Source: Escherichia phage ECP2304
Sequence record: OR880647.1
Length of the DNA stretch: 63,590 nucleotides
Reading direction: 5' to 3' (one strand)
Below the pieces are notes generated by a model. The model was not told where the DNA came from. It worked only from the letters and a program-made list of their open reading frames with translations, and made no database searches. Both the position numbers and the translations under genes were made by a program. Shown one piece after another: positions 1 to 63,590 of this stretch (positions are counted from its first letter, which is position 1; the number at the start of each line of letters is the position of its first letter).

Positions 1-441
1 GAATAATTTATTCCTACTTGATAGAATAATGGAATCGGTACTCCAGAGCGCAAAAACCTAAAACTTTCAGTCAACAGACTAAAAACGGATAGAAACTAAA
101 AGTTAATAAGTAATAACATAAATATATATAAAATAAGGATTTATTAGTAATGTATATAGTACCTATTGGTATTATTTGAATGTTTTTGGGTCATTGTTAA
201 AAAGTCCCAAAACTCACAAAAAGTGAAAGAATACAATTCGTGACAGGATTGTTAATGGAATAAGGTGTATGGATATACAGTATTATTCCAGATTCCGGAA
301 TAATTGGAATAATGGAATAAATTATTGAACTATTGTGATCGGAAGGTATATCAAGCTATAATGCGCTTAATCGCGGGATATTGGAGGAGGACTTTATTGC
401 GCGGTTAACCGGACCAGTAGGAGGGCTGGCCCGGAAGTAGT

Positions 442-768
442 TTAGAGCTGTACAGGTGTGAAGTGGGCTAGCGTATCGTCGGACATAATACCCGACAGTT
501 TTTCGTTTACCCAGTCGGACCAAATGCTATCCGGTTCCTGGCGGTGCACAAACCAGATTTCGGATGTGCCTTCTTTGCGCATCGGTTGCACTTCTGCAAG
601 GAACTTGTCCTGCATAAGGCGCGTGAAGCAGACGCTGGTCATTGGAACCGGCTTTTCGTCTTTATTGTAATAAGGGACCAATATTTTATTTCCGAAGTCT
701 GCAACTTCATAAACTGTTCCTTTGCGAAGGCCTCTGATGTCAGTGTAAGAGCGGATGAACTTTTTCAT
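442..768 (-). CDS. hypothetical protein (108 aa)
   Basis: ATG start, clean ORF in minus-strand gene string inside repeat. Confidence 0.5.
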   Translation of the reverse strand: MKKFIRSYTDIRGLRKGTVYEVADFGNKILVPYYNKDEKPVPMTSVCFTRLMQDKFLAEVQPMRKEGTSEIWFVHRQEPDSIWSDWVNEKLSGIMSDDTLAHFTPVQL

Positions 769-770
769 AT

Positions 771-947
771 TTATTTCCTTACGAACACAGAGCCGACGAA
801 TAATGTTGATTGAGTTGCAGCTTGCTCGATTAATTCGCCAACAAGCTGGGACTGCGTCAGAGGTTTAAGGCCTTCTTTGGCGCGAGCTTCATTTACACGA
901 CGTTGAAGGTCTTTTAGGTATTGAGTTGCGAAACTATCTAATTGCAT
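771..947 (-). CDS. small hypothetical protein (58 aa)
   Basis: ATG at 945-947 preceded by AAGGA RBS; stop 771-773; below track size cutoff. Confidence 0.4.
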   Translation of the reverse strand: MQLDSFATQYLKDLQRRVNEARAKEGLKPLTQSQLVGELIEQAATQSTLFVGSVFVRK

Positions 948-996
948 CTTCTTATCCTTAGGGCTCCCGCAGAAGCCCGTTGAATGTGGTTATCGA

Positions 997-1146
997 CTAT
1001 AACGCTGCAAACATAAGCAGACGAATATTAACTGAAGTTTGGCTATTAAAGTCTTGACATTCTTTGATAATCTCTTCTTCACTTTTACCACTAAGTTTAG
1101 AATATTCTGTGATTGCTTGTTTTAATACAGAATCAAAATTGTTCAT
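997..1146 (-). CDS. small hypothetical protein (49 aa)
   Basis: ATG at 1144-1146 preceded by AAGGAGG RBS; translated by hand to TAG at 997-999. Confidence 0.45.
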   Translation of the reverse strand: MNNFDSVLKQAITEYSKLSGKSEEEIIKECQDFNSQTSVNIRLLMFAAL

Positions 1147-1156
1147 TTTATCCTCC

Positions 1157-1771
1157 TTATGCGTCCAGACCGTTGTATTTGCGCCAGGCGTAGAACTGAA
1201 TGGCGACAGTTGTTCCGTTGTAAGAAGGCATTGCAGCTTTCATCTCTTTCAGCGCCGGCGTGCGGCCCAGTTCCTTCAGAAGCTTGTCACCCATTGCCCA
1301 CACTTCGGCAGTTTTTCCTTTAAGGGGCTTGCGAGCGCCATTTTTGAAATCGCAGCGAGCAGCTTTTGCATCCTGTTTTGGAGCGGCAGCTTTTGGCTCT
1401 TCAATTTTGATTTCAGAAACCTGCGTGGCAGCTTTTGCGTGTTTCATATCTTTCTCTTCCTCCTGCTCCAAAGCTTTGAGGCAGCTTTTGACGATTTCCG
1501 GATTTACCATCGGGCGCAGTACCGAGGCGCTAGCAGCTGGAGCGGCGGTCGGTGCTGGGGCTTTCTGCTCCGGCTTTTGAGCTTTTTCGTGATCGCGCAG
1601 CACCTGAAGGACTTCCTTTTCGACGATGTAAAAACCGATATCGTCCTGATGGATAAGCTGTTCGTGTGCGTCGCGTGCAACCTGGCCCCAGCGAGTTTTC
1701 AGAGCGCGGCGTGCATTCGTTTTCATGGTGTAGCGCATTTTGTCCTGTTCGCGGTGAGTTACTTTAGACAT
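1157..1771 (-). CDS. hypothetical protein (204 aa), basic N-terminus and Ala/Pro-rich linker
   Basis: ATG at 1769-1771 preceded by AAAGGAG RBS; in-frame with track ORF 1157..1816. Confidence 0.6.
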   Translation of the reverse strand: MSKVTHREQDKMRYTMKTNARRALKTRWGQVARDAHEQLIHQDDIGFYIVEKEVLQVLRDHEKAQKPEQKAPAPTAAPAASASVLRPMVNPEIVKSCLKALEQEEEKDMKHAKAATQVSEIKIEEPKAAAPKQDAKAARCDFKNGARKPLKGKTAEVWAMGDKLLKELGRTPALKEMKAAMPSYNGTTVAIQFYAWRKYNGLDA

Positions 1772-1844
1772 GGTATAGCTCCTTTCGTTAATGTTAGTTT
1801 GCTTATTACTGCCCACCGTAATGATGAGCAGTGTATAAGAAAAC

Positions 1845-2093
1845 TTACTGCACGATTGCTACGAAATCGGCGGTTGCGATATCCATGCTTGCAAACGCTT
1901 TGACGGTGTAGCTGGTATCTGCCGCGGCGTTGAAGTCGCTCAGGAACTGTTGTACCGCGTGCTCATGGTTGAGCATTACGTCTACATTGCAGTCCCAGCT
2001 ATAAACCTTGCGCTGACCGAAACCTTTAACTGCAATACGCGCGCCTTTGGTGTTGGTTGGTGCCAAAAATTTGGTGACGATAGAAGTAGCCAT
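1845..2093 (-). CDS. hypothetical protein (82 aa)
   Basis: ATG with GAGGA RBS. Confidence 0.55.
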   Translation of the reverse strand: MATSIVTKFLAPTNTKGARIAVKGFGQRKVYSWDCNVDVMLNHEHAVQQFLSDFNAAADTSYTVKAFASMDIATADFVAIVQ

Positions 2094-2166
2094 GATGTAA
2101 TCCTCGTTTTGTTTAAGTTGACTTATTATTGCCCAGTCAGATCAACTAGGCAAGATATAAATCAGC

Positions 2167-2391
2167 TTATTTAACCATCAAGGCCCATCTTTTATAGCCG
2201 TTCAGCTCCATTCTATGACCGTGGTCGTTGCAGTAACGTTGGATATTATTAAAGTCGTTATCGTTCATATCGCTGACGTCAATATTAAAATAGTTGCGCT
2301 TTGCAGGTGTAACGTATTGGGATAACTGCATTGAGTACAGATGTTCAATGTTGTCGATAATAGCTTGCTGAACTTTAGTGATAGTAGCCAT
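2167..2391 (-). CDS. hypothetical protein (74 aa)
   Basis: Internal ATG at 2389-2391 preceded by GGAGGTG RBS; track ORF extends to 2451. Confidence 0.5.
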   Translation of the reverse strand: MATITKVQQAIIDNIEHLYSMQLSQYVTPAKRNYFNIDVSDMNDNDFNNIQRYCNDHGHRMELNGYKRWALMVK

Positions 2392-2781
2392 GATACACCT
2401 CCTAATGTGGTTAAGCAGTATTGCTTTGTTGAAGTAATAATAGCCTTGCATCGTGATATTGAATAGGCCAAACGTGCTATTTTGATATTGTTTTGCATCT
2501 AGTGAAAATCATGCTTGTATCGCATATTTAGCACTAATGGCCTAACTAACATCACACGATCTGGTCTACGCGCGTGCATACATACATATAAGGAGTGCCG
2601 GACAGGATCGGACCGACCAGGGGCGCTCAACCGTCTCTGTCCGTCCTGTAAGCTGGTCCCCGGACTGGTCCAAAATATTTTTATAAAAAGATGCAAAAAG
2701 GTGTAGACATATGATCAATCTAACCCTACTATATACACATACCGCAAGGGTACTACAAATTAACTTAAAGGGGTTTACATC

Positions 2782-2985
2782 ATGTCTATTCGTAGCGTTA
2801 TCTGTGTAATGGTTGCAAACAATAATTTTGGTTTCGTAGAAGGTGCAGAGTATAAAATGGATCTTAAGACTCGTTGCATTATTAAAGGTGAAGAGGAATG
2901 GCGTGCAGTGGTAGAAGATCGCGGCGATATCTACATCTATAGTTCTGATACAATGAAAACTATTGCCGTCTTCGAATTTAACTAA
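2782..2985 (+). CDS. hypothetical protein (67 aa)
   Basis: ATG with AAAGGGG RBS; first plus-strand gene after divergent intergenic region. Confidence 0.55.
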   Translation: MSIRSVICVMVANNNFGFVEGAEYKMDLKTRCIIKGEEEWRAVVEDRGDIYIYSSDTMKTIAVFEFN

Positions 2986-3053
2986 GCTAACTTATACAAT
3001 GGGCATTAGTACAGTGCCCATTAATAAGCTAACTAATTATAACGAGGTGTATT

Positions 3054-3239
3054 ATGTCTACGAACACTGTGAAGTCTGTAAATAATAGCAACAGAACATT
3101 TAAAGTTATCTATTATGGCGAATATATTGGAGACGTTACAGCTCCCAGCCGCATCGCTGCGGAAGACTTCGTCCGTACAGAGATGGAGCTTGGAATCGCC
3201 GATTTTGCAGCCATTATCGAACTGGTAGAGGTATTCTGA
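3054..3239 (+). CDS. hypothetical protein (61 aa)
   Basis: ATG with GAGGTG RBS. Confidence 0.5.
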   Translation: MSTNTVKSVNNSNRTFKVIYYGEYIGDVTAPSRIAAEDFVRTEMELGIADFAAIIELVEVF

Positions 3240-3240
3240 T

Positions 3241-3381
3241 ATGCAACGCAAATACACGCTTACACGCGCACAGCACGCGTTATTGATTGCAGCTATGCGC
3301 GCAGAATATGCAGTACACGGCTGGCATAGCGCCATGATGCGAGGTAAAAGCATATATGCAGACATATGCTCGCAAGAATAA
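3241..3381 (+). CDS. small hypothetical protein (46 aa)
   Basis: TGAtATG coupling to upstream gene; hand-translated to TAA at 3379-3381. Confidence 0.35.
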   Translation: MQRKYTLTRAQHALLIAAMRAEYAVHGWHSAMMRGKSIYADICSQE

Positions 3382-3944
3382 CGCACACAGCAGCACCACA
3401 GCGAGCTAAAGCTCAAAGGTAATGGTAATGCATTACCAACACACAATAAGCACGCTGTACCCAGCAAAGCGGCGCTAATTTCAACACTCACAGGCTGTAC
3501 GTTAACGCGTACGGCCTGCTCTGCTATATGCACGCCATGTATATAGCCAGCTCACAATGCACATCAATATAATTACGAATGAAATGGATTCGTCTGGAAG
3601 AATAACAATTCTTACAGTCACAGACCGGTCCAATGAGCCAACTCATAGACCCCACCTAGGATCATCAGGGTACTAATAATCACCCGAGGGCCCTTATCCA
3701 TCCTGATAGTAAGTGCTTGCCTAAATCTTACCCATCACTTTACTATCCACATACATCCATGACCCCACCTACCTTCTTTTTGAATATATTGCGCTCATCC
3801 TTTCTAAATATATGGATTTTGGTAGTAAATTCTGAGTCGTCAACGTATAATCCGTCTTGTAGCTGCCCCATAGCTACCATCTTTAAGCGGATGCAACCAA
3901 TTTCTATCAATTCTCACCAGTTTTAGAGCATCAAGGAGGTATTT

Positions 3945-4196
3945 ATGTGCGACTCCAGCGCAAGCACCACGACAAACTCCTCCAGCAATGTGGTTACAGA
4001 GGTAAATGCAATGCGATTAGGTCCATATCGCGGCTATTATGGTCGTGCTGCATGGAATGACGCTACTCAACGTTTTGAAGGCTGGATTATCTGCCCGGAA
4101 CGTGTTAAATTTCACTCCGTAAAAGAGAAAAACATCGTTCTTAATTTTCAAAAATGTGTCACTAAATATGTAGAGGAGCAAGAAGAATGCGTGTAG
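3945..4196 (+). CDS. hypothetical protein (83 aa)
   Basis: AAGGAGG RBS, ATG start. Confidence 0.6.
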   Translation: MCDSSASTTTNSSSNVVTEVNAMRLGPYRGYYGRAAWNDATQRFEGWIICPERVKFHSVKEKNIVLNFQKCVTKYVEEQEECV

Positions 4197-4438
4197 GGGA
4201 GGGTGAAAAGGTTGTCAACTATTTCGGGACTCAGGTTATAGTACCTGCCTGGGTTAACTGGCTCGCGGTTGATGAGTGTGAAGAGCTCTATGCTTATGAA
4301 AATGAGCCTTATATAGACGAATGCGACGATTACGACAAATGGTATGAGGATACGGGTAAATCCATCTTTATCGGCAAGTTTCCTTTCGAAGAAGGTTGTT
4401 GGGTAAATTCTTTAGTTAATGTTAGTTCGGAGGCTTAA
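4187..4438 (+). CDS. hypothetical protein, member of 3-copy paralog family
   Basis: Shares VPxWVxWLAxD...YxxExEP motif with 42828..43127(-) and 5013..5309. Confidence 0.6.
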   Translation: MRVGEGEKVVNYFGTQVIVPAWVNWLAVDECEELYAYENEPYIDECDDYDKWYEDTGKSIFIGKFPFEEGCWVNSLVNVSSEA

Positions 4439-4717
4439 ATGCTTGTAGAAGAGATTGTTGAAGGTAAAGAGTATCGTTTACTGACCGATATTGGTGGTGT
4501 TGGGTATGCTCCGGGCGATGGTGTTGAGTTCCGGGAACTGAAAGCTGGTTCTATTGTTACTGTTAATAAGGTGGTGTTTGATCTGCATAGCCTTTTCGGG
4601 CAGTGGAACCATACTGTAATTGTTAGCCAGGGTAGCGATGAATACGATGAAGAAGAGGATGCTTACGAAATCAGTTATACTGGTCTTGTAGGCGCCAATT
4701 TCCTGGAAGAAGTATAA
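4439..4717 (+). CDS. hypothetical protein (92 aa)
   Basis: Start overlaps upstream stop (TAAATG); clean ORF. Confidence 0.55.
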   Translation: MLVEEIVEGKEYRLLTDIGGVGYAPGDGVEFRELKAGSIVTVNKVVFDLHSLFGQWNHTVIVSQGSDEYDEEEDAYEISYTGLVGANFLEEV

Positions 4718-4767
4718 TTATCAATCTATAATGGGCTCTACGGAGCCCTTAATTATCTGGAGGAGAT

Positions 4768-5010
4768 GTGTTTCCGCGGAATGGTTTAAAGTGGACCGCA
4801 AGGGATCTTGCTTTGCTAAAGGTCAACGCTGGCAAGATTTCGGCGGAAGAAATAGCTTACTATCTTAGAAGAGACGTTGAATCTGTACATATCAAAGCAA
4901 GTAGGCTAAAGTTGTCCTTAGTAACAAACAGGTGCAAGCGCGGGCACGAACGGGTATACCGCAAAGGGCGCTGGCGCTGCAATGAATGTCGTAAACTTAA
5001 AGGGTACTGA
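4768..5010 (+). CDS. hypothetical zinc-ribbon protein (CxxGH...CxxC)
   Basis: GTG start after GGAGGAG; C-terminal CKRGH..RCNEC motif resembles N-terminal zinc module of the HNH protein at 38512..39069. Confidence 0.45.
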   Translation: MFPRNGLKWTARDLALLKVNAGKISAEEIAYYLRRDVESVHIKASRLKLSLVTNRCKRGHERVYRKGRWRCNECRKLKGY

Positions 5011-5012
5011 CT

Positions 5013-5309
5013 ATGTTGTATTTAGGAATGGATGAAACTGGACACGAAATTCCTTCTGTTAGCAAAGAGACGCAAGTATTTACCGACCATTATGGGTCTA
5101 CTATCCCTGTTGAGCCTTGGGCTAAATTTGTGGCTGTAGACGCAGATGGTAAAGTTCATTGCTATGACGGAAAACCTTATTCCTATAAAGCTGGTAGGCA
5201 ATGGATGATTGGTTGTGATGGTACAAAAGTTCGTTACTGCGGTGAAGTTGACCTTGAAGGTATGGACTGGCGTGATACTCTAATGGAGATTAAACATGTC
5301 CGCGGCTGA
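5013..5309 (+). CDS. hypothetical protein, member of 3-copy paralog family
   Basis: Shares VPxW..AVD and EVDLEGMDW motifs with 42828..43127(-). Confidence 0.6.
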   Translation: MLYLGMDETGHEIPSVSKETQVFTDHYGSTIPVEPWAKFVAVDADGKVHCYDGKPYSYKAGRQWMIGCDGTKVRYCGEVDLEGMDWRDTLMEIKHVRG

Positions 5310-5385
5310 AGTTACGACATTTATAATAGCTTTTGCGGTTGCTTTATTTCTTCTAGCTAAGTTAGATTTATTTATTTGGTGACTT

Positions 5386-5610
5386 ATGCGGTTACTTATG
5401 GTTATTGGCGTTATAATTGCCGCTTTCGTCATATTTGCAATGGTGGACTCTAAAGAAATGGAGCGGCAAAATTGTCAACGTACTGGTAACAGCCGGGATG
5501 ATATCATTTGGCAATATATTTACGATGCAAAAGGTAATGTTATGTCAATGTATCCTCAGGTTATTACTGAGTATGAATATAAATGCAATGACCGTAACAG
5601 GTGGAGATAA
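5386..5610 (+). CDS. hypothetical membrane protein (74 aa)
   Basis: N-terminal hydrophobic helix. Confidence 0.5.
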   Translation: MRLLMVIGVIIAAFVIFAMVDSKEMERQNCQRTGNSRDDIIWQYIYDAKGNVMSMYPQVITEYEYKCNDRNRWR

Positions 5611-9345: not shown

Positions 9346-9903
9346 ATGAACGGGGCAAGTCAAGAGCAATATGATCGTGACTGGACGAACTATATCCAGT
9401 ATGCAAATAGCTTGTCCGCTGACGAGATGGCAATACGTGACAAAGTTGTTGCTGAGTATATGTTCGACTACAATTGGACTAACGCTTGCATGAGATGCGG
9501 GTTCAATGCTATGTTTGCACAGGAGCTTGGCCAACGCTTTGCCACGGACTGTTACGTTCGATGGAAGCTCAAGGAGATTGAAAGATCCCGTGTTCAACGT
9601 ACTTCTGAGCAAGCTAACATTGAAGCAGACCTAGAGCGTCAGCATATCATTGAAGCATTAAAACGTGAAGCTCATTATACAGGACCGGGATCTTCTCAAG
9701 CTGCTAGAGTAGCCGCATTGGGCAAGCTTGCACAAATTTATGATTTGGATGCGCCCAAGAAGGCTAAAATTGATGTTACTAACAGAGGCGGCGTAATGAT
9801 AGTCCCTGCTGTAGCAAATATTGACGAATGGGAAAAAAATGCATCCGAGTCTCAACAACGACTAGTTAAAGAGACTGAAGATGGAGCTAAACCGACAACC
9901 TGA
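9346..9903 (+). CDS. putative terminase small subunit
   Basis: 185-aa ORF immediately upstream of and overlapping terminase large subunit. Confidence 0.45.
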   Translation: MNGASQEQYDRDWTNYIQYANSLSADEMAIRDKVVAEYMFDYNWTNACMRCGFNAMFAQELGQRFATDCYVRWKLKEIERSRVQRTSEQANIEADLERQHIIEALKREAHYTGPGSSQAARVAALGKLAQIYDLDAPKKAKIDVTNRGGVMIVPAVANIDEWEKNASESQQRLVKETEDGAKPTT

Positions 9904-11440
9904 TAACATGCCGCGAGTAGTCTGGAAGCCACATCCAGGTTCACAGACGCTCGCTTTATCCTGTCCTGCTGATATCATTTTATACCACGGTACTCGCGGT
10001 CCTGGAAAGACGGACTGCCAGCTTATGCGTTTCCGTAAGAATGTTGGCGTAGGGTACGGTAAATTCTGGAAGGGTATTATATTCGATCGTGAATATAAAA
10101 ACCTTGATGACCTTGTAACCAAATCACAGCGTTGGTTCCCTGAATTTAAAGATGGTGCTAAATTCCTTAGCTCGAAGTCTGATTATAAATGGGTTTGGCC
10201 CACTGGGGAAGAATTGCTGTTCCGTGTTGCTTGCAAAGAAAAGGATTATTGGTCTTATCATGGTCACGAATACCCGTTTATCGGATGGAACGAATTAACA
10301 AAGTATCCGGACGGGCGTTTGTTTGAAGCAATGATGTCCTGTAACCGTTCATCATTCCTACCCGAAGATAATCCAATTATCAATCCGGACGGTACTGTCA
10401 CATATCTACCAGACATTCCTCTGGAAGTATTTGCTACCAGTAACCCGTTTGGTGCGGGGCATAACTGGGTTAAGAAACGCTTCATTGATGCTGCACCGAT
10501 GGGTAAGATACTCAGGAAAACTACGCGAGTGTTTAACCCGCGGACGCAGAAAGAGGAAGATGTGGTTACGACGCAATGTCATATCTTCGGATCTTACCGC
10601 GAGAACAAAAACCTGAGCCCGAAATATATTGCAGAGCTTATGTCCATCACAGACCCGAACAAACGAGCTGCATGGTTAGGCGGTAGCTGGGATATCACCT
10701 CCGGCGGTATGTTCGATGATCTGTGGCGTAGCACTGTTCATAAAATACGCCCATTCCCAATCCCATCAAGCTGGAAGATTACACGCTCTTTCGACTGGGG
10801 TTCTTCAAAACCATTCTCCGTTGGCTGGTGGGCTATTAGTGACGGTTCGGATGTTGTACGTGAGGATGGTACTACATTCTCTACTGTTCGCGGTGACTTA
10901 TTCCGTATTAACGAGTGGTACGGCACTAACGGTAAAACAAACGAAGGCCTACATTTGCTGGACTCAGAGATTGCAAGCGGTATACTGGAGCGGGAATTGG
11001 CCTGGGCTATACACGACCGTGTAGTTCCTGGACCTGCGGATAACTCTATTTGGGATCTGGAGAACAATAACTCTACCGCCGCAACAATGGCGAAGAAAAT
11101 CCGTCTTAACGGCAAGCTGTATAACGGCATCCATTGGAAGAGAAGTGATAAATCCGCTGGGTCGCGTAAACGCGGATGGCAGAAAATGCGTGAGTTTCTT
11201 AAAGCTGCATTGCGGGAAGATGCAAACGGTAAACCTTTGCCGGGGCCACGTGAAAATCCAGCAATGTATGTTTTCGATAACTGCAATTATTTCTTTGAAC
11301 TGGTTCCAAGTCTTCCGCGTGATGAAGTAGATCAGGACGACGTTGATACGGAATGTGAAGACCATATGGGCGATGAAGTACGTTATATGGTTCTGGATCA
11401 AGCTGTTTATACTGGTGTCGGTAGAACTATCGGTATTTAA
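9881..11440 (+). CDS. terminase large subunit
   Basis: Walker A-like GTRGPGKTD; about 519 aa; upstream of portal; alternative ATG at 9908. Confidence 0.8.
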   Translation: MELNRQPDNMPRVVWKPHPGSQTLALSCPADIILYHGTRGPGKTDCQLMRFRKNVGVGYGKFWKGIIFDREYKNLDDLVTKSQRWFPEFKDGAKFLSSKSDYKWVWPTGEELLFRVACKEKDYWSYHGHEYPFIGWNELTKYPDGRLFEAMMSCNRSSFLPEDNPIINPDGTVTYLPDIPLEVFATSNPFGAGHNWVKKRFIDAAPMGKILRKTTRVFNPRTQKEEDVVTTQCHIFGSYRENKNLSPKYIAELMSITDPNKRAAWLGGSWDITSGGMFDDLWRSTVHKIRPFPIPSSWKITRSFDWGSSKPFSVGWWAISDGSDVVREDGTTFSTVRGDLFRINEWYGTNGKTNEGLHLLDSEIASGILERELAWAIHDRVVPGPADNSIWDLENNNSTAATMAKKIRLNGKLYNGIHWKRSDKSAGSRKRGWQKMREFLKAALREDANGKPLPGPRENPAMYVFDNCNYFFELVPSLPRDEVDQDDVDTECEDHMGDEVRYMVLDQAVYTGVGRTIGI

Positions 11441-27170: not shown

Positions 27171-28136
27171 TTAATACATATTTGGTATAGCTATGAGCGG
27201 TGTCGAGATTACCACGTTACGACCGGGCAGTTGGAATTGTTGTCGCGAGTAGTTGCCTACCACGCGGTTTCTTGCAGCACCTACCACATTATCTGCCATG
27301 CGAATCCCGTTCATGCGAATATGATTATAACCTCCGTTGTTCTCAATAAGCGTGCCTGTGTATGCAAGTTGTATTAAGCTGTTACCAATATTTTGCCATC
27401 CTGCGCTAAGATCTACTGTTCCGTTGAATACAAAAGGCTTCTTAACCGTGGAGAACGTAACCTGCCCCGCGCTGTTCGTCATGGTAATACCATCACCAGG
27501 CTGTGGGGGAGTATTGTTAAATATTACTAATTCCATTCCAACAGAAGCCGCTACGTCATCAATTCCACCATATGCTGCGTTACGAACGATAATATTCGAA
27601 CCATCAAAACCTACTGACACGTTAGGGTCGTTCCAGCGAGCAAACGGAACACCACCGACAGGTAATGGCATACTGCCGTTAACCCATACGTACTGGGAAT
27701 ACTGACAAGTCATGAGAAAGGCTGCGTTGGATATTGCTGTGAAGTCCGTGGAGTTAGCCACAAATAGACCCTCGTTTCGCGTTCCTACAGGTAGCAGTTC
27801 CATAATCACCCCTGCCCATTGCGGCAGTCCCCTATAGGCACCCAGTCCGTCCGCACCTCGCAACGTAACTCCACTGTCCCCGTTTCGGGTTACGGACGTT
27901 ACATACATTGGATCGGGGATAACTAGCGTCTGATCAAATACTTCCAGTACTTCAACTGGGTTAGTCATAATAACGACAAGCTGCGATCCTGGCGTCAGAG
28001 GTGTATTGATGGTTAGCGTCTTATCGGATTGACAGCGTTGATTGAAGTTGGCGCAGAAAGACGGAGCGCGTAATCCTGCTGTTATCTGCATTGCAGGTCT
28101 GCCGTCATTGTAGTTTATATAAATACCCTCTGGCAT
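27171..28136 (-). CDS. hypothetical beta-rich protein on opposite strand within tail module
   Basis: ATG 28134-28136 after GGAG; track ORF extends to TTG at 28172; no signal peptide seen. Confidence 0.55.
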   Translation of the reverse strand: MPEGIYINYNDGRPAMQITAGLRAPSFCANFNQRCQSDKTLTINTPLTPGSQLVVIMTNPVEVLEVFDQTLVIPDPMYVTSVTRNGDSGVTLRGADGLGAYRGLPQWAGVIMELLPVGTRNEGLFVANSTDFTAISNAAFLMTCQYSQYVWVNGSMPLPVGGVPFARWNDPNVSVGFDGSNIIVRNAAYGGIDDVAASVGMELVIFNNTPPQPGDGITMTNSAGQVTFSTVKKPFVFNGTVDLSAGWQNIGNSLIQLAYTGTLIENNGGYNHIRMNGIRMADNVVGAARNRVVGNYSRQQFQLPGRNVVISTPLIAIPNMY

Positions 28137-28260
28137 AATTACTCCAACAATGTGGTTAAAGATGGTAGACAATATTGTTTTATATTCTAATTTAATTTAC
28201 CATATTTGTATGCCATAGTGCATCCATTAATTGATCAACTCTGCGAAACAAGAGGTAAAA

Positions 28261-55910: not shown

Positions 55911-58247
55911 TTATTTGCTTAAGTCCTTGAAAACACTCTCAATTGACTCGTCTATATACCATCCCAATCCCCTGAAATTACGCTTCAACGCATCTTCACG
56001 CGTGACTGGAACGAGCGCACCCATGTCTACAAGTTGCTTGATGGTAAGGTCTGTTGCAGTACCTGCTCCCATCCTGTGATTCTTGAATGCTGCTAGACCG
56101 TAGGTTCTGCGTGTGATAGTTGCCTTTGGAATAATACCGTCAACGCGCAGCTCCTTACGATCACATGCAATCTTACCGCCAAGATAGTCTTTGCAGACCT
56201 GACAGATAGCCTTCACACGTGTTTCGTCATCACCGCCAATAGTACCTTTTTCCCATGCGTTGATCATAATGTCCTGACCGTGCGTAACAAAATCTACCGC
56301 CCATTGCATGTGGTTTGGTTGCACCACAGGATTGATCCAGTTTTCCCCCACCGCTAACAGAGAAGCAAGACGCAAAGCTTTAAGGTGTGCACGGTTCCAA
56401 GGCTGACGGATTGCTTCGTCTTTGGTTGCGTTAATGTGTTCGTCACATAACAGGTTAAACTCCCGTTCAATCCTTTCAGCTTCAGGACTTAACTGGACTG
56501 TGACAGTTTGAAACTTCGCCATTGTTACTAAGGTGTGGTTAACAAGATGGCACACCATGTCCTTTAACTGCTGGGGCATTATAATCTCAGGGTTTTCGTT
56601 TGCAGGAACTCGATCTCCTTCATATTGCACAATGTGGAAACGGGACAAGAAACCGTCTTCCATCATTTCACGGGTTAATGCTTCAAAGAAAGTGTCCGGT
56701 GTTGTTTCTCCCAGCACGCTGAACGCTACCCCTTCCATCGTTTTGGTATTATTAGCCTTATCAGAATATCCAATACCGCCAACAACATCCATTGCGCCAG
56801 ATTTTTGATATACATCTGTGATAGTTTGCTTCAGAGTATAGTTTGCAGTACCGGGCTGAGCTGTTGCCATACCTTTGATGGTTTTGCCAAACTCTCCGTT
56901 AATGTTCACAAACGAACTATGATCCGCAAAACTTTTACGCAATGCAGGACCGGACGCATAGTTAGTCATGTCTACAAATTCATGAACTTGCGGTAATTGC
57001 TCCCCTACTTGCTTGCAAATATAGCTGGGTCCGGCGTGAAGCATCTCTTTACCCACACCTGAGCGAGCGATAAGCACAAAGTAACCGTTCAGCCCTGTGT
57101 TGGTGATAGTATTCCATACCTTACCGCACACACCAGACAGAAATGCTAACGATGCGGTGATTGCAATTTCTTTCACGGGACGTTGCGATGCTTTGTAGAT
57201 GTACTTCGCAAGCTCCCCAGCAAGCCCCGGCGGCCACTCAATAGCGGTTGCATCAATAGACGTACTTTCTGCAACTACTATTTGACCGGAAGGACTAACT
57301 GTGGTTACAGGCATCTCTGTTACTTGCTGCATTGTGCTGTGTGCGGCTTGCATACGGGCAGCATAATCTCGCGCCAGCGCCGCTACGTTTTCCTGGGCAA
57401 TGCGCTCACGCTCCATGCGACCGCGGCACATCCGCAAACAACGGTCAATATGAACATTGTTCTTATTAGCCTTCTCACGTTTGCCCAGTGCACTGTAACG
57501 GAACAGACGGCGACATTGCTCATTACTTTCTGTATAGAATGCATACATAGAAATAAGAGCAAGGTCTGCTTCAGACTGGGAAGGGAATCCCATTTCAACC
57601 CATTCACCATTGAATAGGCGTGCATACTTATCCCCGTTGTCCGCTTCAAGCGCGCGCTGGTGAATAGTTGCATCGTCTTCTACCGGATCTTTTTCTACCA
57701 GTTCAATTTCATATGTCTTGCGCTGAAGATCAATTTCATTCACAAGCATAGTAAGATAATGATCGCGTTCGGCAACTGGTTTGTTATAGACAGGATTACC
57801 CGTGCAGATAATAAAACGCTCCTGACTATAAACTTCGACACCATCACGTCGACGACCTTTGCCGATGTTTCCTCTTAACCACAGGTGAACACCCAAGCCT
57901 GAGCGACTTACTTCGGTGTAAGTATCGAACGCGGTCATGATCTGTTCGAAGCGGCGCAACTGTTCCGGCGTCGTGTGCTTCTTGGGATCTGGTTCATTGG
58001 TTGCGTTCTTTACATCCAGGTCGATGCAGGTGAACGGGTCTTGTGCAGTAAGCACGAAGCCTATATAAGGTTTGTTGAAATGAGCAGCACAACCTTTGGC
58101 AGCTTCAAACGTCATAAGCATATCCGGATCGGTAACGTCCGCTGCCATCAAACGTCCGATATCGTTGTCCCATATTAATGGGCGTTTATCTTCACCAGCA
58201 ATAGCCCACTGATTGTATTGTTTAATTTCATCAGGAAATAATTTCAT
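55911..58247 (-). CDS. DNA primase-helicase (PrimPol-like N-terminus, SF3/D5-like helicase C-terminus)
   Basis: 778 aa; acidic DxD-type motif TCIDLDV, GVHLW; Walker A ARSGVGKE; ATG at 58245-58247. Confidence 0.6.
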   Translation of the reverse strand: MKLFPDEIKQYNQWAIAGEDKRPLIWDNDIGRLMAADVTDPDMLMTFEAAKGCAAHFNKPYIGFVLTAQDPFTCIDLDVKNATNEPDPKKHTTPEQLRRFEQIMTAFDTYTEVSRSGLGVHLWLRGNIGKGRRRDGVEVYSQERFIICTGNPVYNKPVAERDHYLTMLVNEIDLQRKTYEIELVEKDPVEDDATIHQRALEADNGDKYARLFNGEWVEMGFPSQSEADLALISMYAFYTESNEQCRRLFRYSALGKREKANKNNVHIDRCLRMCRGRMERERIAQENVAALARDYAARMQAAHSTMQQVTEMPVTTVSPSGQIVVAESTSIDATAIEWPPGLAGELAKYIYKASQRPVKEIAITASLAFLSGVCGKVWNTITNTGLNGYFVLIARSGVGKEMLHAGPSYICKQVGEQLPQVHEFVDMTNYASGPALRKSFADHSSFVNINGEFGKTIKGMATAQPGTANYTLKQTITDVYQKSGAMDVVGGIGYSDKANNTKTMEGVAFSVLGETTPDTFFEALTREMMEDGFLSRFHIVQYEGDRVPANENPEIIMPQQLKDMVCHLVNHTLVTMAKFQTVTVQLSPEAERIEREFNLLCDEHINATKDEAIRQPWNRAHLKALRLASLLAVGENWINPVVQPNHMQWAVDFVTHGQDIMINAWEKGTIGGDDETRVKAICQVCKDYLGGKIACDRKELRVDGIIPKATITRRTYGLAAFKNHRMGAGTATDLTIKQLVDMGALVPVTREDALKRNFRGLGWYIDESIESVFKDLSK

Positions 58248-58248
58248 C

Positions 58249-58773
58249 TTATACACCCAATTTGTTACAACCGTGGTTCTTGTGAAAATTGTAATCGGTT
58301 AATGCTTTACTTACAGCCATTTGTGCATCTTCAAAAGTATCGTATACTCCAAGATATTTTGAAGTCCCGTCGACGCCTATACGAGCTTGCCATTTATTAG
58401 TACCTTTGTGAAATGTAACTCCATTTACTCCAGAGGTATTATTGCGTTTCTTACTTTGATTTCGTCCATTTTCTTTGTGAGTAACAAGACGCAAGTTTTC
58501 AATGCGGTCGTCGTAACGAATGTGATTAATATGGTCTATTTCCATACCTTCCGGTATTGGACCATTATGCATTTCCCATACTATGCGTGAACGGCGATAT
58601 AGTTTGCCTTTAAGAGCAATACGAACATATCCTTTATCCGTAAGCGTACCTGCAACGCAACCTTCTTTCGCTCTTGCGCCCATATCTTTCTTCCAATACA
58701 ACACTCCTTCATTATATTGGAATATTACCGCCCATTGTGGGAAAGCTTTAATTTCAGCGGGAAACAGTTCCAT
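58249..58773 (-). CDS. HNH homing endonuclease with AP2 DNA-binding domain
   Basis: HNH motif EIDHINHIRYDDRIENLRLVTHKEN; AP2-like SGVNGVTFHKGTNKWQARI. Confidence 0.7.
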   Translation of the reverse strand: MELFPAEIKAFPQWAVIFQYNEGVLYWKKDMGARAKEGCVAGTLTDKGYVRIALKGKLYRRSRIVWEMHNGPIPEGMEIDHINHIRYDDRIENLRLVTHKENGRNQSKKRNNTSGVNGVTFHKGTNKWQARIGVDGTSKYLGVYDTFEDAQMAVSKALTDYNFHKNHGCNKLGV

Positions 58774-59028: not shown

Positions 59029-59302
59029 AAATCTGTTTCCTCCGCCATTCTTCATATGCTGAATTATTTGCATCATATACTTCGCAAGCGTCTTTCATGC
59101 TGTCATACAGTCCAAGGAAAGTTCGCCTTGTTTCCCCGCCTGCGTCTACCCATGTTAATCGGGCGAGCCATTTACCAGTTTTGTGATCGAAAGTAACACC
59201 CTCACGCCCGCTTACATTCTCCCGAGGCACTCGAGGTTTCCGGCGTGCAAGCCCGCGACCTTTGAAATTACTGCCCGGGACAGTCCTGCACTTACGACCC
59301 AC
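59015..59302 (-). CDS. AP2-domain DNA-binding protein
   Basis: AP2-like SGREGVTFDHKTGKWLARL; non-ATG start (GTG near 59302 after GGAGG, or TTG at 59320); start uncertain. Confidence 0.4.
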   Translation of the reverse strand: MGRKCRTVPGSNFKGRGLARRKPRVPRENVSGREGVTFDHKTGKWLARLTWVDAGGETRRTFLGLYDSMKDACEVYDANNSAYEEWRRKQIYGYN

Positions 59303-59507
59303 GACCAACCTCCGACACAATCCGACCAGCGTGCAACATTAAGACAGGCTCTGCAACTTCGCGCACGTAAACGTAAACGTTAGCAATTTTAACTTCGCCC
59401 GGCAGCTTGCCGCGCAGCGAACACAACTTGCGACGGCTAAGACCGAAGCGCTTTTCAATTTCTGATGTGGTTATGTATTTAAGATCAAATTCTTTTTGAC
59501 AGTCCAT
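59292..59507 (-). CDS. hypothetical DNA-binding protein (71 aa), first gene of minus-strand arm
   Basis: Strong RBS TAGGAGGTAGGT then ATG; putative HTH segment. Confidence 0.5.
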   Translation of the reverse strand: MDCQKEFDLKYITTSEIEKRFGLSRRKLCSLRGKLPGEVKIANVYVYVREVAEPVLMLHAGRIVSEVGRGS

Positions 59508-59613
59508 ACCTACCTCCTAACAGCACTATACACAATCCATAGTAATGCATCCACAATTATTCCACCTGAAGTTATGATGTGAGAGGATTGTTAATATATA
59601 ACCACATGTGATG

Positions 59614-59704
59614 GAAAGTTTTGGGTAGGAATAGTTGGTGCTCCACAGTTTGCGCAATGTGACCGAAAGTTTTGTGAGTTTTGCGAAGTTTTGCGAAGTT
59701 TTGT
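59614..59704. repeat. Array of GA(A)AGTTTTG direct repeats in right-end non-coding region
   Basis: Five copies including tandem GCGAAGTTTTGCGAAGTTTTG at 59681-59701. Confidence 0.7.
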
Positions 59705-59761
59705 GGTGCCACTGTTGCTAAAAACTTTAATAAAAACAATAAGTTGGTGCAGTAAGTTTTT

Positions 59762-59787
59762 GCGTTTTGGGGTAAAACGCATTTTTT
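59762..59787 (+). terminator. terminator-like hairpin in right-end non-coding region
   Basis: GCGTTTT-GGGGT-AAAACGC followed by ATTTTTT. Confidence 0.4.
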
Positions 59788-60336
59788 ACCCTAACACCCA
59801 AATCCCGACTGTTAGTAAAAAACGTATATAAATCAATAGCATAGATACTAAATGAATAGTGATTGGAATGGGTAGAAATCCAAATGATGGAAGTGGAATA
59901 ATTTATTCCTACTTGATAGAATAATGGAATCGGTACTCCAGAGCGCAAAAACCTAAAACTTTCAGTCAACAGACTAAAAACGGATAGAAACTAAAAGTTA
60001 ATAAGTAATAACATAAATATATATAAAATAAGGATTTATTAGTAATGTATATAGTACCTATTGGTATTATTTGAATGTTTTTGGGTCATTGTTAAAAAGT
60101 CCCAAAACTCACAAAAAGTGAAAGAATACAATTCGTGACAGGATTGTTAATGGAATAAGGTGTATGGATATACAGTATTATTCCAGATTCCGGAATAATT
60201 GGAATAATGGAATAAATTATTGAACTATTGTGATCGGAAGGTATATCAAGCTATAATGCGCTTAATCGCGGGATATTGGAGGAGGACTTTATTGCGCGGT
60301 TAACCGGACCAGTAGGAGGGCTGGCCCGGAAGTAGT

Positions 60337-60663
60337 TTAGAGCTGTACAGGTGTGAAGTGGGCTAGCGTATCGTCGGACATAATACCCGACAGTTTTTCG
60401 TTTACCCAGTCGGACCAAATGCTATCCGGTTCCTGGCGGTGCACAAACCAGATTTCGGATGTGCCTTCTTTGCGCATCGGTTGCACTTCTGCAAGGAACT
60501 TGTCCTGCATAAGGCGCGTGAAGCAGACGCTGGTCATTGGAACCGGCTTTTCGTCTTTATTGTAATAAGGGACCAATATTTTATTTCCGAAGTCTGCAAC
60601 TTCATAAACTGTTCCTTTGCGAAGGCCTCTGATGTCAGTGTAAGAGCGGATGAACTTTTTCAT
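60337..60663 (-). CDS. hypothetical protein (repeat copy of 442..768)
   Basis: Identical duplicate in right repeat. Confidence 0.5.
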   Translation of the reverse strand: MKKFIRSYTDIRGLRKGTVYEVADFGNKILVPYYNKDEKPVPMTSVCFTRLMQDKFLAEVQPMRKEGTSEIWFVHRQEPDSIWSDWVNEKLSGIMSDDTLAHFTPVQL

Positions 60664-60665
60664 AT

Positions 60666-60842
60666 TTATTTCCTTACGAACACAGAGCCGACGAATAATG
60701 TTGATTGAGTTGCAGCTTGCTCGATTAATTCGCCAACAAGCTGGGACTGCGTCAGAGGTTTAAGGCCTTCTTTGGCGCGAGCTTCATTTACACGACGTTG
60801 AAGGTCTTTTAGGTATTGAGTTGCGAAACTATCTAATTGCAT
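60666..60842 (-). CDS. small hypothetical protein (repeat copy of 771..947)
   Basis: Identical duplicate. Confidence 0.4.
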   Translation of the reverse strand: MQLDSFATQYLKDLQRRVNEARAKEGLKPLTQSQLVGELIEQAATQSTLFVGSVFVRK

Positions 60843-60891
60843 CTTCTTATCCTTAGGGCTCCCGCAGAAGCCCGTTGAATGTGGTTATCGA

Positions 60892-61041
60892 CTATAACGC
60901 TGCAAACATAAGCAGACGAATATTAACTGAAGTTTGGCTATTAAAGTCTTGACATTCTTTGATAATCTCTTCTTCACTTTTACCACTAAGTTTAGAATAT
61001 TCTGTGATTGCTTGTTTTAATACAGAATCAAAATTGTTCAT
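60892..61041 (-). CDS. small hypothetical protein (repeat copy of 997..1146)
   Basis: Identical duplicate. Confidence 0.45.
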   Translation of the reverse strand: MNNFDSVLKQAITEYSKLSGKSEEEIIKECQDFNSQTSVNIRLLMFAAL

Positions 61042-61051
61042 TTTATCCTCC

Positions 61052-61666
61052 TTATGCGTCCAGACCGTTGTATTTGCGCCAGGCGTAGAACTGAATGGCG
61101 ACAGTTGTTCCGTTGTAAGAAGGCATTGCAGCTTTCATCTCTTTCAGCGCCGGCGTGCGGCCCAGTTCCTTCAGAAGCTTGTCACCCATTGCCCACACTT
61201 CGGCAGTTTTTCCTTTAAGGGGCTTGCGAGCGCCATTTTTGAAATCGCAGCGAGCAGCTTTTGCATCCTGTTTTGGAGCGGCAGCTTTTGGCTCTTCAAT
61301 TTTGATTTCAGAAACCTGCGTGGCAGCTTTTGCGTGTTTCATATCTTTCTCTTCCTCCTGCTCCAAAGCTTTGAGGCAGCTTTTGACGATTTCCGGATTT
61401 ACCATCGGGCGCAGTACCGAGGCGCTAGCAGCTGGAGCGGCGGTCGGTGCTGGGGCTTTCTGCTCCGGCTTTTGAGCTTTTTCGTGATCGCGCAGCACCT
61501 GAAGGACTTCCTTTTCGACGATGTAAAAACCGATATCGTCCTGATGGATAAGCTGTTCGTGTGCGTCGCGTGCAACCTGGCCCCAGCGAGTTTTCAGAGC
61601 GCGGCGTGCATTCGTTTTCATGGTGTAGCGCATTTTGTCCTGTTCGCGGTGAGTTACTTTAGACAT
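61052..61666 (-). CDS. hypothetical protein (repeat copy of 1157..1771)
   Basis: Identical duplicate. Confidence 0.6.
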   Translation of the reverse strand: MSKVTHREQDKMRYTMKTNARRALKTRWGQVARDAHEQLIHQDDIGFYIVEKEVLQVLRDHEKAQKPEQKAPAPTAAPAASASVLRPMVNPEIVKSCLKALEQEEEKDMKHAKAATQVSEIKIEEPKAAAPKQDAKAARCDFKNGARKPLKGKTAEVWAMGDKLLKELGRTPALKEMKAAMPSYNGTTVAIQFYAWRKYNGLDA

Positions 61667-61739
61667 GGTATAGCTCCTTTCGTTAATGTTAGTTTGCTTA
61701 TTACTGCCCACCGTAATGATGAGCAGTGTATAAGAAAAC

Positions 61740-61988
61740 TTACTGCACGATTGCTACGAAATCGGCGGTTGCGATATCCATGCTTGCAAACGCTTTGACG
61801 GTGTAGCTGGTATCTGCCGCGGCGTTGAAGTCGCTCAGGAACTGTTGTACCGCGTGCTCATGGTTGAGCATTACGTCTACATTGCAGTCCCAGCTATAAA
61901 CCTTGCGCTGACCGAAACCTTTAACTGCAATACGCGCGCCTTTGGTGTTGGTTGGTGCCAAAAATTTGGTGACGATAGAAGTAGCCAT
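61740..61988 (-). CDS. hypothetical protein (repeat copy of 1845..2093)
   Basis: Identical duplicate. Confidence 0.55.
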   Translation of the reverse strand: MATSIVTKFLAPTNTKGARIAVKGFGQRKVYSWDCNVDVMLNHEHAVQQFLSDFNAAADTSYTVKAFASMDIATADFVAIVQ

Positions 61989-62061
61989 GATGTAATCCTC
62001 GTTTTGTTTAAGTTGACTTATTATTGCCCAGTCAGATCAACTAGGCAAGATATAAATCAGC

Positions 62062-62286
62062 TTATTTAACCATCAAGGCCCATCTTTTATAGCCGTTCAG
62101 CTCCATTCTATGACCGTGGTCGTTGCAGTAACGTTGGATATTATTAAAGTCGTTATCGTTCATATCGCTGACGTCAATATTAAAATAGTTGCGCTTTGCA
62201 GGTGTAACGTATTGGGATAACTGCATTGAGTACAGATGTTCAATGTTGTCGATAATAGCTTGCTGAACTTTAGTGATAGTAGCCAT
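62062..62286 (-). CDS. hypothetical protein (repeat copy of 2167..2391)
   Basis: Identical duplicate. Confidence 0.5.
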   Translation of the reverse strand: MATITKVQQAIIDNIEHLYSMQLSQYVTPAKRNYFNIDVSDMNDNDFNNIQRYCNDHGHRMELNGYKRWALMVK

Positions 62287-62676
62287 GATACACCTCCTAA
62301 TGTGGTTAAGCAGTATTGCTTTGTTGAAGTAATAATAGCCTTGCATCGTGATATTGAATAGGCCAAACGTGCTATTTTGATATTGTTTTGCATCTAGTGA
62401 AAATCATGCTTGTATCGCATATTTAGCACTAATGGCCTAACTAACATCACACGATCTGGTCTACGCGCGTGCATACATACATATAAGGAGTGCCGGACAG
62501 GATCGGACCGACCAGGGGCGCTCAACCGTCTCTGTCCGTCCTGTAAGCTGGTCCCCGGACTGGTCCAAAATATTTTTATAAAAAGATGCAAAAAGGTGTA
62601 GACATATGATCAATCTAACCCTACTATATACACATACCGCAAGGGTACTACAAATTAACTTAAAGGGGTTTACATC

Positions 62677-62880
62677 ATGTCTATTCGTAGCGTTATCTGT
62701 GTAATGGTTGCAAACAATAATTTTGGTTTCGTAGAAGGTGCAGAGTATAAAATGGATCTTAAGACTCGTTGCATTATTAAAGGTGAAGAGGAATGGCGTG
62801 CAGTGGTAGAAGATCGCGGCGATATCTACATCTATAGTTCTGATACAATGAAAACTATTGCCGTCTTCGAATTTAACTAA
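62677..62880 (+). CDS. hypothetical protein (repeat copy of 2782..2985)
   Basis: Identical duplicate. Confidence 0.55.
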   Translation: MSIRSVICVMVANNNFGFVEGAEYKMDLKTRCIIKGEEEWRAVVEDRGDIYIYSSDTMKTIAVFEFN

Positions 62881-62948
62881 GCTAACTTATACAATGGGCA
62901 TTAGTACAGTGCCCATTAATAAGCTAACTAATTATAACGAGGTGTATT

Positions 62949-63134
62949 ATGTCTACGAACACTGTGAAGTCTGTAAATAATAGCAACAGAACATTTAAAG
63001 TTATCTATTATGGCGAATATATTGGAGACGTTACAGCTCCCAGCCGCATCGCTGCGGAAGACTTCGTCCGTACAGAGATGGAGCTTGGAATCGCCGATTT
63101 TGCAGCCATTATCGAACTGGTAGAGGTATTCTGA
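62949..63134 (+). CDS. hypothetical protein (repeat copy of 3054..3239)
   Basis: Identical duplicate. Confidence 0.5.
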   Translation: MSTNTVKSVNNSNRTFKVIYYGEYIGDVTAPSRIAAEDFVRTEMELGIADFAAIIELVEVF

Positions 63135-63135
63135 T

Positions 63136-63276
63136 ATGCAACGCAAATACACGCTTACACGCGCACAGCACGCGTTATTGATTGCAGCTATGCGCGCAGA
63201 ATATGCAGTACACGGCTGGCATAGCGCCATGATGCGAGGTAAAAGCATATATGCAGACATATGCTCGCAAGAATAA
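63136..63276 (+). CDS. small hypothetical protein (repeat copy of 3241..3381)
   Basis: Identical duplicate. Confidence 0.35.
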   Translation: MQRKYTLTRAQHALLIAAMRAEYAVHGWHSAMMRGKSIYADICSQE

Positions 63277-63590
63277 CGCACACAGCAGCACCACAGCGAG
63301 CTAAAGCTCAAAGGTAATGGTAATGCATTACCAACACACAATAAGCACGCTGTACCCAGCAAAGCGGCGCTAATTTCAACACTCACAGGCTGTACGTTAA
63401 CGCGTACGGCCTGCTCTGCTATATGCACGCCATGTATATAGCCAGCTCACAATGCACATCAATATAATTACGAATGAAATGGATTCGTCTGGAAGAATAA
63501 CAATTCTTACAGTCACAGACCGGTCCAATGAGCCAACTCATAGACCCCACCTAGGATCATCAGGGTACTAATAATCACCCGAGGGCCCTT

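Follow-up and report, generated by a model that had tools for sequence, protein, structure and literature searches.

Long direct terminal repeats (DTRs) are known from phages T5 (~10 kb) and SPO1 (~13 kb), an arrangement that PhageTerm classes as "long DTR", and the genes lying within these repeats are pre-early or host-takeover genes. The DNA described here, the 63,590-nt record of Escherichia phage ECP2304 (OR880647.1; hereafter, the window), carries the same 3,695 bp at both of its ends. It resembles T5 and SPO1 in what appear to be fixed ends, in a kilobase-scale and exact repeat, and in small genes of unknown function placed around what may be strong regulatory regions. In contrast to these phages, its repeat is 3-4 times shorter, and its large terminase shows no detectable relationship to the T5 enzyme, with no Tequintavirus listed among 669 large-terminase tblastn matches. 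The likeness to T5 is one of gene arrangement, namely small open reading frames (ORFs) within the repeat; two-step entry, nicks, and the injection-stop are features of T5. T7 and T3 also have fixed termini, and their repeats are made from concatemers in which each junction has a single copy (PMC5557969, which summarizes the general DTR mechanism); however, these repeats (160-231 bp) are twenty-fold shorter and non-coding.

Positions 1-3695 and 59896-63590 of the window are identical at 3695 of 3695 bases in direct orientation, and the second copy reaches the final base, as the original prediction had proposed. Because the match is exact over 3.7 kb, chance identity is excluded. Subtraction of the second copy leaves the predicted 59,895 unique bases (44.4% G+C), and a repeat scan of the whole window found this pair to be its sole long repeat. 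The repeat starts with GAATAATTT... and ends with ...GGGCCCTT. The finer points of the prediction also held: the repeat opens with the palindrome GAATAATTTATTC (6+1+6), it ends within a non-coding stretch that we measured as 563 nt (3382-3944; predicted, ~560 bp), and nine small ORFs are located inside it, of which those at 442-2451 (six) run on the minus strand and those at 2782-3381 (three) on the plus strand. The proposed diploidy for about nine small genes and the divergent region between them is thus borne out at the level of ORFs. Between the two origins considered for the duplication, a genuine long DTR or redundancy from assembly or concatemers, the former is favored because the boundary positions recur in relatives. 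We put the probability that the two copies represent a genuine long DTR with fixed ends, of the T5/SPO1 kind, at about 0.85. The window would then most likely correspond to the full virion DNA of a Seuratvirus coliphage, in which 59,895 unique bp are followed by a repetition of the initial 3,695 bp.

The placement of the boundaries provided the first line of evidence for this interpretation. In a simple codon-usage gene map, which left 14% of the sequence as non-coding DNA, both repeat boundaries fell within the two largest non-coding gaps of the genome (829 and 563 nt). Arbitrary ends would hit both of these gaps with a probability of ~(829 x 563)/59895^2, or ~1e-4, and would both fall in any non-coding DNA with a chance of ~2%. 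Thus, the boundaries are not arbitrary.

Comparison with related phages provided the second. The window matches phages of the genus Seuratvirus (Queuovirinae), including CAjan, Seurat, GottfriedDienst, phiG7, the SLUR phages, and SA126VB, at 90-97% nucleotide identity across the repeat and most of the ensuing 24 kb; the phage collection that was compared contains no identical record. Its large terminase is 99% identical in amino acid sequence to its Seuratvirus counterparts; identity is 89% with the enzyme of Hafnia phage yong3 and 63.5% with that of Pa-V, which is closely related to Pseudomonas phage iggy. The large terminases of the Nonagvirus phages HdK1 and HdSG1 group in the same clade. 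Terminase kinship thus links the window to yong3, to iggy through Pa-V, and to HdK1 and HdSG1.

The record of yong3 (OM868075.1; Seuratvirus) contains an exact terminal duplication of 3,424 bp (1-3424 = 59400-62823) and begins, as the window does, ~9.8 kb upstream of the large terminase gene. The right boundary occupies the same alignment column in both phages, with ...GGGCCCTT before it and ATCCATCCTGATAGTA after it in the window and ...GTTGGGAT and GTCCATCCTGATAGTA, respectively, in yong3. The left boundary is found 21 nt past a shared GGGTAG in yong3 and 20 nt past it in the window, the two positions being ~3 nt apart in the alignment, and the two repeats contain homologous small ORFs. In contrast, the yong3 repeat is 271 bp shorter, its left edge lacks the palindrome, and the boundary flanks, which contain indels, are ~74% identical between the two phages. 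The yong3 record includes the 3,424-bp duplication, which therefore enters its stated length twice, and is nevertheless flagged "circular".

Exact terminal repeats of similar length are also present in two members of the sister genus Nonagvirus within Queuovirinae, vB_EcoS_HdK1 (MK373794; 64,059 bp, repeat of 3,367 bp) and vB_EcoS_HdSG1 (MK373795; 63,595 bp, repeat of 3,363 bp), whose total DNA thus amounts to 63.6-64.1 kb. Both records are ~4 kb longer than other Nonagvirus records, their large terminase genes are located 8.5-8.7 kb from the start, and their authors linearized the genomes where reads "ended abruptly". The repeat is syntenic with that of the window, comprising the leftward small-gene block that has the primase operon on one side and, on the other, the rightward genes preceding the terminase, and two of its ORFs are homologous to window ORFs. 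The right boundaries of HdK1 and HdSG1 are identical, while the left ones differ by 3 nt, and both boundary sequences are kept in four further Nonagvirus loci, ~3.1-3.4 kb apart. The two phages differ from the window in that their boundary sequences (GCCGCGGGGCGGCTC before and TTAGATCTCTGCC after the right boundary; ATAAAGGGGTCTCG at the left) are unrelated to those of the window, and in that the repeat stops within the divergent intergenic region and so does not include the rightward genes. A more distant case is iggy (Iggyvirus, related to Queuovirinae), which has a 1,091-bp DTR with termini mapped by nanopore sequencing (PMC10484667). It shares with the window a related large terminase and a bidirectional ~60-kb genome, while its repeat is 3.4 times shorter; the iggy GenBank record has no duplicated ends, so the position of the repeat could not be compared. 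The coincidence of boundaries with yong3 and the synteny with the read-derived ends of HdK1 and HdSG1 are indirect evidence that the ECP2304 termini occupy fixed, non-permuted positions.

These comparisons bear directly on the possibility that the phage packages its DNA by a headful mechanism (pac-type or random) with ~6% redundancy, so that the window would represent one long read or an overlap assembly of a permuted genome with accidental ends. The size of the repeat (3,695/59,895 = 6.2%) is typical of headful redundancy, related assemblies circularize and were deposited without repeats, and headful packaging has been inferred for Mesyanzhinovviridae, whose large terminase is related (PMC11946847). 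However, a headful right end is variable, while that of the window matches yong3 to the nucleotide and abuts an invariant sequence block, and the right boundaries of HdK1 and HdSG1 are likewise identical. Thus, instead of the variable downstream end and circular permutation that mark headful packaging, we found a right boundary that is nucleotide-exact between independent records. Moreover, the two largest intergenic gaps are the ones that contain the boundaries, and the left end of the window lies 9.3 kb upstream of the small terminase gene, whereas pac sites are usually in or near that gene. Because the downstream end is conserved where headful packaging would make it vary, we consider headful redundancy very unlikely. 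The non-arbitrary boundaries, together with the repeats of yong3, the Nonagvirus phages, and iggy, exclude an accidental overlap.

A processing artefact would account for the duplicated ends in another way, if a circular sequence had been given a second copy, either through wrap-around or on the model of a relative such as yong3. The two copies agree at 100% of their bases, the boundary match to yong3 is close enough that transfer by homology is conceivable, and yong3 itself bears the "circular" flag in spite of its duplication. An arbitrary wrap-around would, however, miss the homologous intergenic positions, and the diverged, indel-containing flanks and the left offset of ~3 nt mean that copying from yong3 by homology would not be trivial. 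Even if the copy had been added by analogy, the read-based ends of HdK1, HdSG1, and iggy make the repeat biologically likely. We thus give little credence to an artefact.

The right boundary of the window adjoins a conserved 15-mer, TCCATCCTGATAGTA (Table 1), which occurs once in the window at up to 2 mismatches and holds the same position relative to the right boundary of yong3. We aligned this region in 11 genomes, of which eight are Seuratvirus isolates and two are IMG/VR contigs; the remaining one is a Klebsiella-phage-like relative whose large terminase is 75% identical. The sequence ATCCTGATAGTA was invariant in all 11, while the DNA on each side of it existed in at least two unrelated versions, forming a mosaic. 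Because it constitutes a conserved island at the exact position of the cut, the TCCATCCTGATAGTA block is the best candidate for a cis-acting site of terminase recognition or cleavage. Two direct 11-mers, GACCCCACCTA, bracket the right boundary, at -47 and +66 nt; both blocks are partly conserved in relatives.

The same block might instead serve as a promoter or operator for the rightward genes that lies beside the terminus by coincidence, with the terminase signal located elsewhere. Its sequence TGATAGTAA/T resembles an extended -10 element (TGnTATAAT), and the first rightward gene beyond the repeat starts at 3945, ~230 nt downstream of the block. Against this, the invariant part reaches upstream of the TG (ATCC), which is unexpected for an extended -10, two genomes that were deposited independently both have the boundary 1 nt ahead of the block, and the block is absent from the list produced by a consensus promoter scan. 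The two roles could also coexist. On balance, we regard a purely regulatory role as a credible but unlikely alternative to that of a terminase site.

The left boundary showed a different pattern of conservation. At the internal junction, it is located after the first base of a 15-bp palindrome, GGAATAATTTATTCC, which is also present in GottfriedDienst and Skure. The palindrome was considered as a conserved feature of the terminus and was rejected, being absent from yong3, HdK1, and HdSG1. It seems to be a member of a GGAATAA repeat family local to this region: of the 22 GGAATAA sites in the unique genome, 8 are located in the AT-rich 829-nt gap, where they occur in both orientations (59557, 59895, 59903, 60152, 60178, 60192, 60201, and 60209; cluster at 60152-60215). 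The gap also contains tandem AGTTTTG units at 59666-59703 (4-5 units of ~10 nt) with inverted partners at 59955 and 60095-60116. This iteron-like repeat region (59508-60336), part of which is duplicated at 1-441, may be a replication origin or a binding array for a regulatory or packaging protein.

The 829-nt region and the adjacent 71-amino acid ORF (59292-59507), annotated as "cox"-like in yong3, are common to GottfriedDienst, Skure, and ~7 other phages. In CAjan, Seurat, phiG7, and SA126VB, the left region (59292-59945) is replaced by unrelated sequence and a different neighboring gene of ~250 amino acids, and the homology with CAjan-type relatives restarts at repeat position ~48-54. A second common breakpoint is found near repeat position 319. 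The left module of SA126VB has repeats of its own (CACTAT/ATAGTG), unrelated to GGAATAA. Thus, the left terminus lies inside a swappable module. An exact 24-mer of the left edge gave no match in IMG/VR; loci in that database were found via the large terminase and are useful for their homologous sequence, while their contig ends are arbitrary and uninformative on physical ends. With respect to cis-acting sequence at the cut sites, the right boundary is thus marked by a block invariant in 11 genomes, and the left boundary is conserved within one type of module only.

Several observations weigh against a fixed-end DTR in ECP2304. Its ends are read from the deposited sequence and from comparison with relatives, and an appended second copy, whether added by software or by hand, would necessarily match the first. 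Exact identity is, however, expected in any case, because phage repeats are collapsed by assemblers and PhageTerm outputs a genome "completed with ... repeats" (PMC5557969). The ends of yong3 likewise rest on its deposited record, and we found no paper describing them; our search of a library of papers likewise returned none that describes a DTR in either genus, Seuratvirus or Nonagvirus. In the 30 related GenBank records that match best, the repeat region occurs once, at an internal position, and a nanopore study of CAjan quotes 59,670 bp and does not mention the ends. Some relatives' records may lack the repeat because termini are invisible in transposase libraries (PMC5557969). Other objections concern the boundary sequences. 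The sequence at the left boundary has been swapped in CAjan-, Seurat-, and SA126VB-type relatives despite nearly the same terminase genes, and thus a purely sequence-specific left cut is not established. No motif, direct or inverted, was common to the left and right boundaries of the window, yong3, HdK1, and HdSG1; one of eight left/right comparisons reached p ~0.02, with no consistent motif or offset. The T7 model includes a hairpin near the junction, whereas no significant terminal hairpin was detected in the window: when the last 60 nt of the repeat were folded as DNA, z scores ranged from +1.1 to -1.2 in the four phages, and the first 60 nt made no stronger case (-0.2 in the window and -2.2 in HdK1). 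Last, the potential reading of the conserved 15-mer as an extended -10 promoter belongs among these objections.

If the repeat of ECP2304 forms as modeled for T7, T3, T5, and SPO1, replication would yield concatemers with a single copy of the repeat at each junction. The terminase, encoded by the genes at 9346-11440, would recognize fixed sites and cut or nick at both boundaries, and 3' extension synthesis would then duplicate the repeat, leaving a copy at each end of every packaged genome. With low confidence, we propose that the right edge serves as the main site and is specified precisely, because it is exact in both genus pairs and adjoins an invariant sequence. The left edge would be specified less strictly, given its 3-nt scatter and swappable context.

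A more far-reaching version, in which the two ends are defined differently, is tentative and on present evidence rather doubtful. The right end would be set at the genus-wide invariant site (RTCCATCCTGATAGTA, directly beyond the boundary), while the left end would lie in an exchangeable non-coding module that has its own repeat family and an adjacent small gene of DNA-binding-like character, here GGAATAA and the 71-amino acid ORF. The position of the left terminus would in that case be given by its distance from conserved sequence within the repeat or by a specificity factor encoded in the module, which would amount to a swappable end-definition cassette serving one conserved terminase.

The coordinates of the repeat, its boundaries, and the genes discussed are collected in Table 1. 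The nine ORFs within the repeat gave no match in Pfam, and their PHROG families are mostly of unknown function. The 94-amino acid ORF at 2167-2451 (-) matched phrog_7673, "internal head protein" (E = 6e-20), and relatives have a shorter ORF annotated at this place; we distrust the label for a 94-amino acid ORF in a presumed early region. Several of the ORFs have counterparts within the repeats of relatives: 1157-1816 in both yong3 and HdK1, 1845-2093 in HdK1, and 2782-2985 in yong3, where the homologous ORF is 98.5% identical. The region between the two gene blocks had been predicted to be a divergent promoter region. The gene orientation is indeed divergent around it, while the consensus promoter scan performed no better than chance, with the counts of sigma-70 promoters and terminators in 1-4300 staying inside the range of shuffled sequence and showing no enrichment. 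Its putative promoter function is thus deduced from gene orientation only. The nine ORFs are probably early or host-takeover genes, as their position and small size resemble those of the pre-early genes in the T5 and SPO1 repeats. Because the repeat is present at both ends, they would be carried on whichever end enters the cell first.

Table 1. Features of the ECP2304 terminal repeat, its boundaries, and the terminase genes (positions in the window).
Feature	Position	Strand	Basis or remark
Left copy, direct terminal repeat	1..3695		identical to 59896-63590
Right copy, direct terminal repeat	59896..63590		identical to 1-3695
Largest non-coding gap, 829 nt	59508..60336		contains left boundary between 59895 and 59896; gene map and sequence
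Second-largest non-coding gap, 563 nt	3382..3944		contains right boundary between 3695 and 3696; weak-scoring minus-strand ORF 3743-3910 set aside
Conserved block TCCATCCTGATAGTA, 15-mer	3697..3711	+	starts 2 nt outside right boundary
Direct 11-mers GACCCCACCTA bracketing right boundary	3648-3658, 3761-3771	+	only two copies in window
15-bp palindrome GGAATAATTTATTCC at internal copy	59895..59909		left boundary after its first base
Six leftward small ORFs	442-768, 771-947, 997-1146, 1157-1816, 1845-2093, 2167-2451	-	gene map; annotation of relatives agrees
Divergent intergenic region, 330 nt	2452..2781		gene map
Three rightward small ORFs	2782-2985, 3054-3239, 3241-3381	+	gene map; annotation of relatives agrees
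Small terminase subunit gene, presumed trans-acting partner	9346..9903	+	annotated so in relatives; only weak DUF6578 match
Large terminase subunit gene	9881..11440	+	Terminase_6N match

In the genome, the repeat has the leftward primase operon (55911-58256, with further genes downstream) on one side and a series of small rightward genes on the other, followed by the genes for the small terminase, the large terminase, and the portal. Most Seuratvirus records open at the small terminase gene (window position 9346) and hence are permuted relative to the inferred physical ends. Homing endonuclease genes appear to be mobile around the repeat: an HNH gene (PF13392) at 58249-58773 (-) abuts the primase gene of the window, its HdK1 homologue (54% identical; 3536-4015) lies just right of the right repeat boundary of that phage, and in Skure and phiG7 such genes are inserted soon after the conserved right-boundary block (listed loci, 5115-5588 and 4391-4864). 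Elsewhere, a lone minus-strand gene (27171-28172; 333 amino acids; DUF6453, E = 1e-131) is found within the plus-strand tail and structural module. The HNH endonuclease and the DUF6453 protein were among ten window proteins that were scanned, the others being replication proteins. The total DNA including the repeat is similar in the window (63,590 bp), HdSG1 (63,595 bp), HdK1 (64,059 bp), and yong3 (62,823 bp), while the lengths of the repeats and of the unique parts differ, which may reflect a shared capsid capacity.

We regard the repeat as real, conserved, and under-reported, a further case of the known long-DTR kind that would not surprise a specialist. If all Seuratviruses and Nonagviruses package repeats of 3.4-3.7 kb, their virion DNA would measure ~63-64 kb, as compared to the 56-61 kb given in nearly all records. 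As a corollary, essentially all Seuratvirus and most Nonagvirus reference genomes would be missing 3.4-3.7 kb of virion DNA. The affected records would include those of CAjan, Seurat, and the BASEL phages, which would also be permuted relative to the physical ends. This would matter for genome rebooting, synthetic assembly, counts of restriction/modification sites, estimates of packaging density, and the identification of the first-entering genes. Furthermore, nine uncharacterized ORFs become candidate immediate-early or host-takeover genes, and a short conserved DNA block becomes a testable candidate for the terminase site. The understanding of phage packaging itself is unchanged, since this would be the T5/SPO1 arrangement in another siphovirus lineage; the main value of the finding would be practical, in providing the correct length and orientation of the virion genome for Queuovirinae.

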